Shown here piece after piece: positions 42,978-48,363 of a stretch of 64,000 bases of DNA. Numbering within the stretch: the first letter of the stretch is position 1; each line of letters begins with the position of its first letter. The translations under genes and the position numbers were made by a program. The DNA comes from Prochlorococcus sp. AG-355-A18 (GTDB lineage: Bacteria; Cyanobacteriota; Cyanobacteriia; PCC-6307; Cyanobiaceae): the NCBI GenBank assembly GCA_003280985.1, contig QCDH01000003.1:9591-73590 (forward strand), in the 5' to 3' direction. The notes under the pieces are model-generated. The model saw nothing but the letters and a program-made list of their open reading frames with translations, was not told the DNA's origin and ran no database searches.

Positions 42978-43808
42978 ATGAGTTTAGAAATATATTGGAA
43001 AAAAGCATTAGAACAAACTCGATTATCAATTGATGATGAATCCTTATATCCTCTCAAAACTGTTAATATCACAAGAGATTTATATGAAAAAGACGACTTC
43101 ATAATTAGGAAACTCGATACTTCAAAATTTATTAAAAGAAAAATTTATGGTCCTAAGCAAAATCCGTTTTGTCCTTGGGAAAAGATACTAGAAATTGAAA
43201 AAATTGGATATAATCATCAACTAATATTAAATAAGTACCCTGTACAAAAAGGGCATATTTTACTTATTACAAATGAATGGAAACCTCAAAATGGATGGTT
43301 AGATATTAAAGATTGGAGAGCGATCCAAGAAGTTAATAATGATACTAGTGGATTATGGTTTTTCAATAGTTCTCCAATTGCGGGAGCAAGTCAACCTCAC
43401 AGGCATTTTCAACTTCTGCGTAGATCTAAAGGTGAGATATCATGCCCTAGAGAAAAGTGGTTTTTAGAGGTGAACTCATATCAAGATCTAGATAGTAAGC
43501 TTAAAAAAAATATTATTGTATCCAAATTTAATTTTTTAGAAAATCCATCATGTCTTTATGATTTTTACTTAGAATTATGCAAGAAATTGGGACTTGGGGA
43601 TCCTATTATTGATAAGAAACCGATATGTCCCTACAATATTTTAATAACTAATAAATGGATCGCTATTATAAAAAGAAAAAATGATCATATTCATGGTTTC
43701 AGTATTAACGGTTTAGGATTTGCAGGATATCTACTAGTAACTGAAAATTCAAATATTAATTATTTAAAGAAATTTGGCCCTGAAAAACTTCTAGAAAGTT
43801 TTGTTTGA
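42978..43808 (+). CDS. ATP adenylyltransferase / Ap4A phosphorylase II (HIT family)
   Basis: NPFCPWE, LNKYPV, AGASQPHRHFQ, NGLGFAG. Confidence 0.9.
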   Translation: MSLEIYWKKALEQTRLSIDDESLYPLKTVNITRDLYEKDDFIIRKLDTSKFIKRKIYGPKQNPFCPWEKILEIEKIGYNHQLILNKYPVQKGHILLITNEWKPQNGWLDIKDWRAIQEVNNDTSGLWFFNSSPIAGASQPHRHFQLLRRSKGEISCPREKWFLEVNSYQDLDSKLKKNIIVSKFNFLENPSCLYDFYLELCKKLGLGDPIIDKKPICPYNILITNKWIAIIKRKNDHIHGFSINGLGFAGYLLVTENSNINYLKKFGPEKLLESFV

Positions 43809-43811
43809 ATA

Positions 43812-43991
43812 CTAATTAGTTACCTCAACTTCCTTATCCCTGCTTATTTGGCTTTCTAGAACTTCTATAGATGCTGTTACAGATGCAATTTTACGTTCAA
43901 GTGAATCCTTAATATAATTGAGCATTTCTAATTTCTTGTGTTGATAAAAACTCTTTTTTTCTTTAGATGACTTGAAATAACAATTAAACAT
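43812..43991 (-). CDS. Small coiled-coil hypothetical protein, 59 aa (not in the ORF track)
   Basis: Manual translation MFNCYFKSSKEKKSFYQHKKLEMLNYIKDSLERKIASVTASIEVLESQISRDKEVEVTN*; divergent from the RHH-J gene. Confidence 0.65.
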   Translation of the reverse strand: MFNCYFKSSKEKKSFYQHKKLEMLNYIKDSLERKIASVTASIEVLESQISRDKEVEVTN

Positions 43992-44135
43992 TTTTTTGAT
44001 TTATTATAAAAAGATACTTAATTGACTTGTGACATAAAAATAAATTGGTTTTAATTTAAAAACAATATTCCTTATGGACTTTCAATTTTTTTTGAATAAA
44101 ATTAAATAAATTCCATACTCTTCAAGAAAATATTA

Positions 44136-45146
44136 TTGAATATTCCTGAAAATTCTAATACAAAAAGAATTTCAATTGATTTACCTGAGGAACTAATTTC
44201 CAGGTTTGATCAATTACGAAAAGAGTGGGGACTTAGAGCAAGAGGACCTGTATTAGAAAAGATACTTAAAGAACTTCTTCAAGAAGATGATTTACTACCT
44301 AAGAACCAACAGCAAGAAATAGACTTTAACGATAAGAATAATAATGAAAATTTAAATATTGATGAAGATACTGCATTGGTATTAATTAAATCAGACGTAA
44401 AAAAAGAAGTTAATGAGGTATCTTTAAATAAAAGATCTACAAATAACAATCAATATAAAGAAAAAGCCAACTCAAATATAAGCCTTCCCAATTTCGTTGA
44501 AAAAAAAGTAAAGAATCTAAGAAGAAGTATTAATAGTGAAAAATTAAAAGAGAATATTAATGATATTCAAATTAATACAATCAAAGAAACTGAATTAATA
44601 AAATGTCGAATTGAGTTAATTAGTCATTGGAAAACCTTATATGGATCAGTTCCTAATGACCATGTAGTAGAAGCTTCAATGGATTGGTTTGAAAGGGATA
44701 TATGGCCAAATCTTGATGGAACTGAAAATCTACCCTTTACTTGGAGCGCAGCCAATAAATTAATGTCAGAATTATGCCCATTTTGGATAAAGAAAAATCC
44801 ATCTCTTGAAATTGTTTTATTGATGATTGGCGTTTTAGAAGACCCTTTTGCTACATCAGATCTGATAAATAGAATACCAACACTTATGAGAAGGTTTGTA
44901 AGTAGATTTAAGCGAAATAATAGATCAAATTCATTTGAAACATTGGACTCAACAATGACAGTACATGGAGCACTTAAATTATTGAATTTATCAACATCAG
45001 CAGGATCAGCTCATACATTCCGTAAAATTAGGGAGGCCTATAAATCAATAGCCTTAGAGAAACATCCAGATGCTGGAGGATCAACAGATCAAATGAGAAA
45101 ATTAAATGAAGCGTATCAATTGCTAAAAAATCTATATAGAGACTAG
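44136..45146 (+). CDS. RHH (CopG/NikR-like) DNA-binding domain fused to C-terminal J-domain
   Basis: N-term KRISIDLPEELISRFDQLRKEWG...VLEKILKELL; C-term IREAYKSIALEKHPDAGG...MRKLNEAYQLL. Confidence 0.82.
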   Translation: MNIPENSNTKRISIDLPEELISRFDQLRKEWGLRARGPVLEKILKELLQEDDLLPKNQQQEIDFNDKNNNENLNIDEDTALVLIKSDVKKEVNEVSLNKRSTNNNQYKEKANSNISLPNFVEKKVKNLRRSINSEKLKENINDIQINTIKETELIKCRIELISHWKTLYGSVPNDHVVEASMDWFERDIWPNLDGTENLPFTWSAANKLMSELCPFWIKKNPSLEIVLLMIGVLEDPFATSDLINRIPTLMRRFVSRFKRNNRSNSFETLDSTMTVHGALKLLNLSTSAGSAHTFRKIREAYKSIALEKHPDAGGSTDQMRKLNEAYQLLKNLYRD

Positions 45147-45154
45147 TATGGTAA

Positions 45155-45205
45155 TTCTCATATGAGACTAATTATAAGTCTTAATAATAGTCTTATATAA
45201 GATAG
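45155..45205 (+). repeat. 51-bp element, copy 1
   Basis: TTCTCATATGAGACTAATTATAAGTCTTAATAATAGTCTTATATAAGATAG; perfect palindromes at 45156-45167 and 45191-45202. Confidence 0.9.
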
Positions 45206-45328
45206 CTGCTAAGTTTAAAATTTTTAATATTAATCAATTATTTTTTACAAATTCAAGAAAACAAAAATTATTTATAAATCAAATTAAAAAAATATACTTT
45301 TAAAAATAGAAATTTCTTTGTATAGCAC

Positions 45329-45379
45329 TTCTTAAATGAGACTTATTATTGGTCTATCATATAGTCTCAAAATAGATAA
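45329..45379 (+). repeat. 51-bp element, copy 2 (direct, degenerate)
   Basis: TTCTTAAATGAGACTTATTATTGGTCTATCATATAGTCTCAAAATAGATAA; 36/51 identical to copy 1 without gaps (hand alignment). Confidence 0.72.
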
Positions 45380-45564
45380 TAAAGATAAACAAATTAATCG
45401 ATTTGAATGAATCATACCCAAACTGCTTAATGCCTTGGAAAAAATTAAGAATTGAATAATAAATCAATAAATTATGTCCTTTAAATGTCCAGAAAATTAA
45501 TCATGGCTAGAAAGTATTGCTATAAGGACTTTTTGTATACATCCGTGCTGCCTTAAAGACAGTA

Positions 45565-45825
45565 CTACTTAGATTGAAGCTTTTCAATAGCAGTTTGTTT
45601 ATCAATACTAGGGACATCACTAAGACCGTTAGCATCAAACCAAGGGGCGCTAGCCCAATCAAATCCTTCCCCAAAAGTATTATCTGGTGCAGCTATATAC
45701 CAATGGCATGAAGCATCTGGTATGTCAACAGCACATTTTGACCAATCATCTGACCACTGAGGGACCTGTACCCACAACACTGAAGATAGAAGTAGAGATA
45801 ATAAATTGATCATGAGCTTTATCAT
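45565..45825 (-). CDS. Small Trp-rich, probably secreted hypothetical protein
   Basis: Hydrophobic N-terminus, WVQVPQWSDDWSKCAVDIPDASCHWY; start may be 45813. Confidence 0.8.
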   Translation of the reverse strand: MIKLMINLLSLLLSSVLWVQVPQWSDDWSKCAVDIPDASCHWYIAAPDNTFGEGFDWASAPWFDANGLSDVPSIDKQTAIEKLQSK

Positions 45826-45856
45826 ACAACATTAATTAGTTTTATAGGATTATTAT

Positions 45857-45907
45857 CTATCTTATATAAGAATTATAAAAAGACTAGTATATAGTCTCAT
45901 ATGAGAA
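45857..45907 (-). repeat. 51-bp element, copy 3 (inverted)
   Basis: Reverse complement TTCTCATATGAGACTATATACTAGTCTTTTTATAATTCTTATATAAGATAG; 42/51 identical to copy 1, with first 16 and last 14 bp exact. Confidence 0.9.
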
Positions 45908-45918
45908 CAGCAATACAG

Positions 45919-48363
45919 TTAATTCCTCAATTTAGTATTAAAATATTTTTCAACATTAGAAATGATATTTGAATGAATTGATGTAATGTCCGAGTCCAAT
46001 AATGTTTTATCTTTATCTCGATAAGATAATCTAAATGTATAACTTATATGATCTTCTCCAAATTTAGCATCTTCAAAAACATCAAGTAAATTTACATCCT
46101 CCAAGAGATTTTTTCCTGTTTTTCTTATCTGTGACGTTATTTCGCTAATCAAAAATTTCTTACTGAAAACAAAATTTATATCCCTTTCCATTTTCGGAAC
46201 AATTGGATATTGCTTATATATTGGAATCCATTTATTTTTTCTTGTACTAGCTCCCAAGAGTTTAGATACATTTATGTTAAATAAATAAACTTTTTTTAAT
46301 GACTTCTTTTCTAGTATTAGTTTTGGATGTATTTCACCAAAATAACCTGCATCCTTGCCTTCAATAACTAATTTCGCTGTTCTTCCTGGATGAAGAAAAT
46401 CAATTGAATCAGTAGGTTTATCCTCAATTTTTATGTTCAATGATGATAAAGCTTCCTTTAACTTTCCTCTGGCCTGGTAATAATTAAGATCGTTATCCTT
46501 ACCAGAATTTATCCATTGTCCAAATTTTCTATTTCCATAAATTGCACCATTCAGAACTTCTTCTTGAATGAACTCAGATTTCTTTTGAAAAACATTTCCA
46601 ATTTCAAATATATAACAACTTGCTTGTCCAGCTTTTATATTACGGTTCACTATCTCTAAATGTTCTTTCCAGATATTATCTCTAAGACAGCTTGTTTCTA
46701 ATAACAAAGGATTGGAAATCTTTATAAGTTTTTCATTATCTTCGGGAACAAGAGAGTAACTTAGTACCTCGTTAAAACCATTTTCTACAAAACCATTTTT
46801 TACTTTTCTCAATGCCAACTGTTCTGATGACAATTTTCCAGGCTTAATTGGATTAGGAAGTTTTAAGTCAAATCTGTCATACCCTATTAATCTCGCTATT
46901 TCTTCAATTAAATCTATTTCTCTTATTAAATCATGTGATCTATTAGGAATTACTGCTACATCCCAGCCATATTCTTTATTCTTTAATGTACAACCTATGA
47001 GTGTTAATTTATCAACTATTTCATTATCAGATAAATTTCTTTTTTCTAATTGATCGTTAATTATTAATGGACCAAGAATTTTATGTATTCGATTTCTCCG
47101 GAGTTGAATAAATATATCCTCATTACTTATTAAATTGGAAGTATTGATGATTGGTGAATTAATAGAAAAATATTCTTCTAAAAGATTAATTGCCCTTGTT
47201 ACCGCACTTATTGTATTTTTTGATGAGATCCCTTTTTCATACCTGCTACTAGATTCTGTTCTTATGCCAACCTCTTTTGAAGATTTTCTTATAGTAACTG
47301 GATTAAAAACAGCGCCTTCAAGGTAAATAGATGAGGTAGTATTAGTTACAGAAGTTTCTAAACCTCCTATCACCCCAGCAATAGCTACCGGTTTATCACA
47401 ACAAGTAATAACTGTGATGTCTTCATTTAATTCATATTCTTTACCATCTAAGCAAATAAGGCTTTCGCTCACGTGGCCCTTTCTTACAGAGAAATCTTCT
47501 GGAGAAACCTCCTTACCAATTAAGTTTGACAGTTTATCTTTATCAAACGCATGCAAAGGTTGACCTTGTTCTAAAAGAATATAATTTGTCAAATCAACTA
47601 GAAGATTAATAGATTTTATACCTGATTTCTCTATACGGTCCTTAAGCCAATTTGGCGATAATTTCTTTCCATTTACTCCATCAATGCAGCTTATTGTATA
47701 AATGCAATTAGATTCTATAGCCTCTGGACAAAGTTTTATTCCCTTAAGTAAATGTATATTGTATTTATGGTTTAATTCTGGAAAATTTAAGGTTGTTTCT
47801 AAAAGGGCAGAAATTTCACGGGCTATACCTATAACAGACATTCCGTCAGGTCTATTAGCTGTAATGGCTAAATCATATATATAATCATTTAATTGAAGCA
47901 AGTCAGACCCTGGAGTGCCCAATTCATATTTGAAGGCTAAATCTTCATCAATGACCTCTATCCCCTCACTAGAGTCCTCTAAACCCAATTCCTGCAATGA
48001 ACATATCATTCCTTCACTAATGACACCTCTAATTTCATTTCTTTTAATAGTTAAATCAACTGCATTTAATTTCGCGCCGACAGTAGCAACATAAACATAA
48101 ATATTTGGTTTAATATTGCGCGCACCACAGATAATTTGTAAATTCTTTGAATTACCAATATCGACTTGGCAAATTGAAAGCTTGTCAGATCCTTCGTGTT
48201 TTAAAACAGATAATACCTTACCTAAAACAACACCATTTACATTTTCTGAACAATCTTCTAATGATTCAACCTCAAATCCACCAATAGACAATTTCTCAGA
48301 GAGATCTTCAGGAGTAGAAGTAATTTCTACTAAATTTTTCAACCAATTTTGAGAAACTTTCAT
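45919..48363 (-). CDS. pheT: Phenylalanine-tRNA ligase beta subunit
   Basis: ICGARN, SEGMICS, ITANRPD, DLIEEIAR, FDX-ACB C-terminus. Confidence 0.98.
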   Translation of the reverse strand: MKVSQNWLKNLVEITSTPEDLSEKLSIGGFEVESLEDCSENVNGVVLGKVLSVLKHEGSDKLSICQVDIGNSKNLQIICGARNIKPNIYVYVATVGAKLNAVDLTIKRNEIRGVISEGMICSLQELGLEDSSEGIEVIDEDLAFKYELGTPGSDLLQLNDYIYDLAITANRPDGMSVIGIAREISALLETTLNFPELNHKYNIHLLKGIKLCPEAIESNCIYTISCIDGVNGKKLSPNWLKDRIEKSGIKSINLLVDLTNYILLEQGQPLHAFDKDKLSNLIGKEVSPEDFSVRKGHVSESLICLDGKEYELNEDITVITCCDKPVAIAGVIGGLETSVTNTTSSIYLEGAVFNPVTIRKSSKEVGIRTESSSRYEKGISSKNTISAVTRAINLLEEYFSINSPIINTSNLISNEDIFIQLRRNRIHKILGPLIINDQLEKRNLSDNEIVDKLTLIGCTLKNKEYGWDVAVIPNRSHDLIREIDLIEEIARLIGYDRFDLKLPNPIKPGKLSSEQLALRKVKNGFVENGFNEVLSYSLVPEDNEKLIKISNPLLLETSCLRDNIWKEHLEIVNRNIKAGQASCYIFEIGNVFQKKSEFIQEEVLNGAIYGNRKFGQWINSGKDNDLNYYQARGKLKEALSSLNIKIEDKPTDSIDFLHPGRTAKLVIEGKDAGYFGEIHPKLILEKKSLKKVYLFNINVSKLLGASTRKNKWIPIYKQYPIVPKMERDINFVFSKKFLISEITSQIRKTGKNLLEDVNLLDVFEDAKFGEDHISYTFRLSYRDKDKTLLDSDITSIHSNIISNVEKYFNTKLRN

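Follow-up and report, generated by a model that had tools for sequence, protein, structure and literature searches.

A candidate FtsK-independent resolution site at the chromosome terminus of Prochlorococcus and related cyanobacteria

We propose, with a probability of roughly 0.6, that the locus behind the RHH-J gene of Prochlorococcus is an FtsK-independent site for resolving chromosome dimers, resembling dif and cer, that the RHH-J protein is its chromosome-specific accessory protein, and that phages exploit the site. The site is conserved across the picocyanobacteria Prochlorococcus, Synechococcus and Cyanobium, where it lies opposite the presumed origin of replication. The basis in hand is the anatomy of the locus, its conservation, chromosomal position and uniqueness, a search in which FtsK was not found, a recombinase with intact catalytic residues, and phage copies that have the core and boxes but lack the host arrays. 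The locus lies in the window, by which we mean the whole stretch of 64,000 nucleotides that was analyzed (C3:9591-73590), from an assembly of 1.18 Mb that is 70% complete. The genomes in all counts given here are related, so they are not independent samples.

Anatomy and conservation of the locus

The RHH-J gene (44136 to 45146, forward strand) encodes a 336-aa protein that is likely an accessory protein. Behind it lie three copies of a 51-bp element, in which an earlier note on this DNA had recognized a phased array. Copy 1 (45155 to 45205) and copy 2 (45329 to 45379) are on the forward strand with the same polarity, and copy 3 (45857 to 45907) is on the reverse strand, inverted relative to copy 1. 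Ungapped alignment bears out the identities to copy 1 that the note gave, 36/51 for copy 2 and 42/51 for copy 3; copies 2 and 3 agree with each other at 32/51 positions. Every coordinate that it listed for half-sites and for four palindromes of the form TCTYATATRAGA is also correct. The near-uniqueness that it expected is found as well, in that this 12-mer occurs four times in the 1.18-Mb assembly, each time at the locus. Outside the locus, the best ungapped match to the 51-bp element in the assembly is 32/51, and among 300 shuffles of the remaining interval none gave a match to copy 1 better than 33/51.

Two parts of this first description had to be revised. The elements are not palindromic as a whole, since 16 to 20 of their 51 positions are self-complementary in register. 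Each consists of five AGWCT-type boxes in a polar row, spaced 11, 12, 12 and 11 bp apart; in copy 1, the boxes start at 45154, 45165, 45177, 45189 and 45200. An extra box overlapping the RHH-J stop codon (45140) does exist at that place, but it is not conserved, because it appears in one of the 15 half-site lists covered, out of 21. The most conserved parts of the locus had been overlooked, namely, a 27-bp core (45542 to 45568, without strand) and TGTCC boxes at 45475 and 45486.

The core consists of inverted 10-bp arms around a free 7-bp spacer and, to judge from this layout, is a putative crossover site. Its form across the family is GCGTAMCTGY-N7-RCAGKTACGC, and its form in high-light strains is CTGCCTTAAAGACAGTACTAC, an exact string that is unique in the assembly. 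The family-wide linkage of the site to the RHH-J gene that the earlier note anticipated is evident: the core lies behind the gene in 46/46 family loci (40/40 divergent loci, at distances of 220 to 880 bp, and 6/6 further loci), and the high-light variant does so in 100/100 high-light Prochlorococcus loci. The high-light set comprises 101 loci, of which 100 have enough flanking sequence and 93 are distinct. These counts rest on the fetched loci, because a search with a one-mismatch, family-wide core pattern, which matched in 96/151 cases with chance matches included, is both too loose and too narrow for counting. A symmetric family profile ranks the core of the window only fifth, because the left arm is degenerate in this genome.

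The arms are conserved and the spacer varies freely: the 40 hosts have 26 spacer types among them, and the 52 phage sites compared among the matches listed have 37. The spacer is of odd length and is not self-complementary. An 86-aa ORF of no known family (45565 to 45825, reverse strand), probably a passenger, has a stop codon that overlaps the right arm, and this overlap may account in part for the conservation of that arm in high-light strains. We also considered a likeness of the arm to the XisC hupL repeat (common CAGTTAT, in the available text of PMC11249958) and rejected it as too short to use.

The TGTCC boxes form two TGTCC(A) direct repeats, 11 bp apart (45475 to 45491, forward strand), and are candidate arm-type sites. 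The second box is 62 bp from the CTG of the core in 84 of the 93 distinct high-light loci. Among the 40 family loci, 36 carry GTCC at -55 to -57 relative to the core start. The boxes occur only on the side of the gene, with further GTCC copies one and two helical turns away. Between the arm boxes and the core, conserved columns in the high-light loci mark a middle box around TTGCTAT (45517; approximate limits 45511 to 45526, without strand) that may bind a further factor. A related imperfect palindrome was seen by eye in phage sites, in either orientation.

The arrays flank this center. In 89/93 distinct high-light loci, a profile trained on copy 1 detected at least two direct copies to the left of the center and, to its right, an inverted one. 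Copy 3 lies 306 to 309 bp from the core CTG in 91/93 of these loci, and the distance between copies 1 and 2 varies among relatives from 151 to 275 bp. In the divergent host loci, chains of at least three boxes occur in 30/40, versus 2/40 upstream controls; with a relaxed box definition, they flank the center on both sides in 21/40, versus 0 in the control. The array pattern is confined to the locus in G000 and in five near-complete genomes. This conservation, the uniqueness and the box chains at host loci support, at the level of sequence, the earlier suggestion that the arrays are protein-binding sites under selection. Some high-light strains (loci L010, L141, L108 and L109) have four array copies, three of them left of the core.

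The neighbors of the locus are an Ap4A-phosphorylase-like gene, two small ORFs and pheT. Searches of positions 43500 to 46500 against Rfam gave no match at E-values up to 1, no tRNA was found at the locus or at most island copies (see below), and a scan of the locus ruled out a terminator. Within pheT, an 11-mer at window positions 46272 to 46282, which we take to match the XerD arm of canonical dif, has no partner arm and probably arose by chance.

Chromosomal position and candidate proteins

We take dnaN as a marker of the origin. Measured from this gene, the core lies at 0.45 to 0.55 of the chromosome in 33/40 closed genomes, with a median of 0.485, and at 0.40 to 0.60 in 38/40, the locus having either orientation. 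In the lopsided genome G086, where the site is at 0.33, the GC skew switches sign at the site and not at the antipode: the raw skew of 20-kb samples is positive in the three between 720 and 800 kb and negative in every one of the nine from 805 kb onward. A slightly negative skew at 600 to 680 kb, which is noise, counts against this placement. GC skew did not place the terminus in G072 (site at 0.36), where it is uninformative, or in G159 and G183, where it is weak.

According to the available text of PMC10913375, the highest peak of MED4 vesicle DNA lies within a terminus window at 826 to 832 kb, and the same text labels the Prochlorococcus peak a 'dif site' after its reference 9, giving no sequence; through that reference, the position may already have been recognized as dif. 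In three high-light genomes that start at dnaN, the arrays lie at 830 to 856 kb. No description of the site sequence appears in the available text of the literature covered, which includes PMC7901474, PMC8138268, PMC11876622, PMC8995045 and PMC3861242. The site is real and family-wide, and it is probably undescribed at the sequence level.

The RHH-J protein consists of an N-terminal ribbon-helix-helix-like domain, a disordered linker, a helical middle domain and a C-terminal J-domain, in which the HPD motif is invariant in the alignment. Its Pfam scores are an E-value of 5.9e-6 for DnaJ, just under the cut-off, and 0.14 for RHH_1, below the cut-off; precomputed annotations assign PF01402 to several homologues. 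Fold searches with the whole protein matched J-domains only. The gene is present in 140/150 well-assembled family genomes and in 20/24 genomes of the same genus, and the 10 family genomes in which it was not found are the same 10 in which the site was not found. Among 16 genomes outside the family, two gave weak matches, confined to the J-domain. The arrays occur only in hosts and are tied to the RHH-J gene, and are therefore most simply RHH-J sites. Binding of the arrays by RHH-J is plausible, given the 11- to 12-bp period of the boxes and the absence of arrays from phage copies. Stand-alone proteins of about 58 aa that resemble the RHH domain of RHH-J are encoded at G106:C1:379313, G082:C1:913177 and G041:C1:1526336.

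FtsK (PF01580) was found in 0/38 family genomes in a search for which 8/14 controls pass the cut-off. Published surveys of cyanobacteria, as far as their available text goes, report that dif prediction failed in 5/5 of them (PMC3025954, Kono et al.) and that xerC is rare among them (PMC5101192).

The candidate enzyme is a core tyrosine recombinase that is encoded in 148/150 family genomes, at C18:7699-8856 in the present assembly, and is the sole PF00589 match in two closed genomes, G015 and G047. We take its neighbors to be hemH and cobO. Residues R239, R331, H332, H354 and Y363 are invariant in the alignment, and the fold matches XerA, IntI, XerH and lambda Int, with lambda Int aligned over 375 columns at an E-value of 1.5e-4 (for the whole protein). 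Against the NCBIfam models of XerC, XerD, XerS and XerA, its best score is 34 bits, below the cut-off of 220. An extra N-terminal domain of a helix, three strands and a helix (residues 3 to 76) has the three-stranded form that would be expected for arm binding. The available text of Hackl et al. (10.1101/2020.12.28.424599) mentions a Prochlorococcus core-gene integrase, its function unstated there, that groups with tycheposon integrases; this is presumably the core recombinase described here. Two genomes have a match to the core recombinase that is either split or interrupted by a stop (G116:C1:2394839-2395953 and G156:C1:1888258-1889403); G116 still has the site.

The pairing of this recombinase with the site is predicted by elimination. 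Counting against it, the gene is far from the site, and close orthologues (E-value below 1e-85) occur in 45/93 genomes outside the family. Moreover, eight of the 10 family genomes without RHH-J keep the recombinase, namely, genus g21 (G044, G079, G103, G121, G136, G149 and G160) and G050, all drafts that are 90 to 99% complete. Neither the non-family orthologue carriers nor the family genomes without RHH-J yielded a credible copy of the site, the pattern matches in them being chance-like; the core therefore tracks RHH-J and not the recombinase. Neither a core nor an arm pair was found near five orthologous and eight paralogous recombinase loci.

Copies in phages and islands

The core pattern matches at least 120 IMG/VR stretches. 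Among the matches listed (120), 44 have phased GTCC boxes 45 to 74 bp away, versus 1/507 control positions, and 112 have Y..R spacer ends, which the pattern does not require. Part of the viral matches beyond the 44 may have arisen by chance. Among the matches listed, chains of at least three boxes such as form the host arrays were found in 0/80 phage loci, and terL adjoins the site in 17/31 scanned loci, 13 of them T7-like and four of another type. Ten recombinase, RHH-J and DUF1651 queries gave no match in the viral loci listed, 40 of which have flanks of 300 bases only, with positive controls detected. PF00589 occurs in 1/34 whole viral records among the matches listed, many of which are fragments, and in 1/7 near-complete viral records, this one being a provirus whose core match has no boxes. 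The core, the middle box and the TGTCC boxes are thus common to host and viruses and have the geometry of tyrosine-recombinase sites; the protein that reads them is therefore most simply the host enzyme.

Sites were called by profile scan in 10 named podovirus records. Three of these, AP013539.1, S-CBP4 and P-GSP1, carry the site and gave no integrase match. No site was found in the other seven of the 10, five having been examined near terL or the genome ends only, which counts against the proposal; S-CBP1 has an integrase and no site, and S-B28 has neither. The high-light arm variant occurs in P-GSP1, whose host is MED4 by its record, and in six podovirus contigs. The P-GSP1 site comes after talC, at the place of the terminal repeat in P-SSP7, and may therefore lie in a terminal repeat. 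In S-CBP4, the site spans the record join, with boxes directly beside the core; the circular S-CBP4 record (L359, NC_025464.1) is cut inside the core copy, which may mark a physical end or an assembly break. Four public sequencing runs, available as contigs in which rare variants are dropped, contained no recombination joints of the hairpin, inversion or integration type, a result that also counts against the proposal.

In one low-light genus, islands carry the core with boxes about 75 bp away, a longer arm spacing than in host sites, near a gene for DUF1651, an unrelated integrase or a T7-type polymerase. Five of these copies (L076, L077, L079, L080 and L213, at G186 1025827, 1036572 and 1046026, G073 759808 and G132 419036) have two to five GGACA boxes with an 11-bp period, and a sixth (L078, at G145 182756) has no phased boxes. 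The integrase beside the island copies has no significant similarity to the core recombinase, which, like the longer arm spacing, counts against the proposal. Paired copies with different spacers bracket a 9.4-kb island in G186, and comparison of this island with five relatives placed no junction at the core. By eye, the integrase of the G186 element has S where the first catalytic R is usually found. An element of about 9 kb in G073 (L079 7433-12876 and L215 1-1300) carries a T7-type RNA polymerase and an integrase; its integrase end has, again by eye, a similar layout that is made up of a different palindrome and a pair of GGAGAACA repeats.

Known systems, alternative explanations and a proposed mechanism

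By analogy, the locus appears to work like dif with accessory DNA of the cer or att type, and not like MatP/matS, parC or a protelomerase target. We compared it with XerCD-dif-FtsK and with the single-enzyme systems XerS, XerH and XerA. As in Xer/dif, there is one site per chromosome, in the terminus region, with inverted arms and a short spacer, and a chromosomal tyrosine recombinase with fold matches to XerA and XerH is inherited as a core gene. The dif core has 28 bp (11+6+11), whereas that of the locus has 27 bp (10+7+10). Unlike Xer proteins, the candidate enzyme carries an additional domain at its N terminus, and its scores fall far short of the Xer cut-offs. Unlike XerCD-dif-FtsK, the system has extensive accessory DNA, a dedicated RHH-J gene and no FtsK that we could find.

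The sites cer and psi use Xer together with PepA and ArgR or ArcA, and TnpI/IRS is likewise a resolution site. These resemble the locus in having a core with one-sided accessory sequences in fixed helical phase, and in that other replicons appear to borrow the host enzyme; the locus differs in being chromosomal, in its further two-sided arrays and in a candidate accessory protein with a J-domain. Lambda-type att sites are similar in geometry only, having a 7-bp overlap, direct arm-type repeats and a box between arm and core, and the N-terminal three-stranded domain of the candidate enzyme may correspond to the arm-binding domain of such integrases. In contrast to lambda-type att sites and tycheposon integrases, the host site is fixed and not at a tRNA, no element boundary was seen at it in the host, and the recombinase gene is unlinked. 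IMEX are phages that use the host Xer proteins at dif. The viral carriers resemble them in bearing copies of the host site on genomes without a recognizable integrase, many of the records being fragments. Unlike IMEX, the carriers are tailed T7-like and other terminase-bearing phages with diverse spacers, and no integration at the host site was observed. Finally, ParR/parC, Arc and MatP/matS are ribbon-helix-helix systems that, like the locus, have short pseudo-symmetric boxes with a period of about 11 bp next to an RHH gene, the one at the locus being a candidate. The locus differs from these in having no motor NTPase and in its arrays around a crossover-like core, and it is single, whereas matS sites are many and spread across the terminus domain.

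A fundamentally different explanation is that RHH-J and a core-binding protein form a non-recombining complex that organizes or anchors the terminus or arrests forks there, with MatP/matS, Tus/Ter, RTP/Ter or a ParR/parC-type centromere as models. We regard this as unlikely, though it fits several observations: polar arrays face each other across the center in 89/93 distinct loci, the RHH-J gene is adjacent and not found in the same 10 genomes as the site, and the 11- to 12-bp period suits RHH arrays. However, such a complex would leave the 10+7+10 core, the free spacer and the one-sided phased boxes unaccounted for, and would give no reason for phages to copy the core and boxes but not the arrays; the locus is also single, with no motor gene beside it. 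A centromere or iteron, as the earlier note proposed, does not hold up as the main reading, given the position opposite dnaN and the lack of a motor NTPase or initiator gene beside the locus. We consider it quite improbable that the site recombines but is kept mainly for integration or exchange of phages and islands, as an attL/attR-like partner, and not for dimer resolution. In its favor are the paired copies that bracket the G186 island and the polarity of the spacer ends relative to the boxes, which is C..A in 24/40 hosts and the reverse, T..G, in 35/52 phages among the matches listed; also, two of the 37 distinct phage spacers among these matches equal a host spacer reversed, and none does so in the same sense. 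Yet the whole-spacer orientation test is weak (22/37, matches listed), and most phage spacers among the matches listed match no sampled host. Inserts at high-light loci must be rare, because the distance from core to copy 3 is fixed, and a benefit to the host is implied by the strict terminal position and by retention in streamlined genomes. These two explanations keep some probability because neither the directionality across megabases nor the broad distribution of the recombinase is explained.

Transcriptional control, with the arrays as RHH-J operators and the core as a repressor-type palindrome, seems very improbable. A promoter-like match upstream of the 86-aa ORF coincides in part with copy 3, and the core resembles a CTG-spacer-CAG operator, the geometry of LexA-type sites. 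Promoter-like matches nevertheless stand at chance level (8 versus 7.2), and neither the position opposite dnaN nor the phage copies at genome-end regions would be explained. Moreover, converging 3' ends enclose copies 1 and 2 together with the core; the earlier note had made this point for the two copies and argued that they are not simple promoter operators. We give hardly any credence to a hairpin-telomere target of a protelomerase or a res site of a serine resolvase. The core is palindromic and located at the terminus, TelA appears low in the fold list of the recombinase (E-value 3.7e-3), and several viral contigs among the matches listed end within tens of bases of the core. However, the odd-length spacer is not self-complementary, the center is not fully palindromic as in protelomerase targets, and the protelomerase domain PF16684 was found in 0/5 genomes. 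Neither strand-switch joints nor hairpin ends were seen, and a 70-kb contig as well as 100 loci continue across the site. The three array copies recall res subsites, a reading that the earlier note had entertained and that is weakened by G047, in which no serine resolvase was found, although the other four of five site-bearing genomes have one. PF16684, the telomere-resolvase catalytic family, passes the cut-off in a control genome, Synechococcus elongatus.

We return to resolution at a dif/cer-like site, for which a mechanism can be outlined. A single terminal site with a drifting spacer in cells without FtsK suggests resolution between sister sites. The catalytic domains of the recombinase would sit on the two 10-bp arms, and strand exchange would take place across the 7-bp spacer; because exchange would be between sister sites, the spacer may drift between lineages. 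The N-terminal three-stranded domain would reach over some five helical turns to bind the TGTCC(A) boxes, with the DNA looping over the middle box, and RHH-J dimers would line the rows of five boxes on either side of the core. The J-domain could then recruit DnaK, and assembly or dismantling of the complex would supply the timing and direction that FtsK gives elsewhere. Phages and islands without a matching integrase would use the host enzyme on their own copies to circularize, resolve or integrate. This outline does not account for how, across megabases, accessory sites alone could distinguish a dimer from two monomers, which counts against dimer resolution.

A more specific scenario, which we advance tentatively and do not expect to hold in every part, is that in picocyanobacteria a domesticated arm-binding integrase replaced Xer/dif/FtsK, that a J-domain protein bound to the DNA gates the terminus site of this integrase and calls DnaK, so that a chaperone would switch chromosome resolution, and that unrelated lytic cyanophages carry the site at their genome ends for the host enzyme to circularize, resolve or integrate them.

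The most abundant photosynthetic cells have to complete and separate a circular chromosome without FtsK or a recognizable dif. For this step, the present analysis contributes a precisely located site together with candidates for the enzyme and for the accessory protein. A core-gene integrase and a core J-domain protein would gain a function, and the terminus peak of Prochlorococcus vesicle DNA may gain a sequence. From the phage copies, we suggest that cyanophages lacking an integrase rely on the host recombinase. The arm variant may serve as a marker of host group, and the site could become an engineering tool for these cells.
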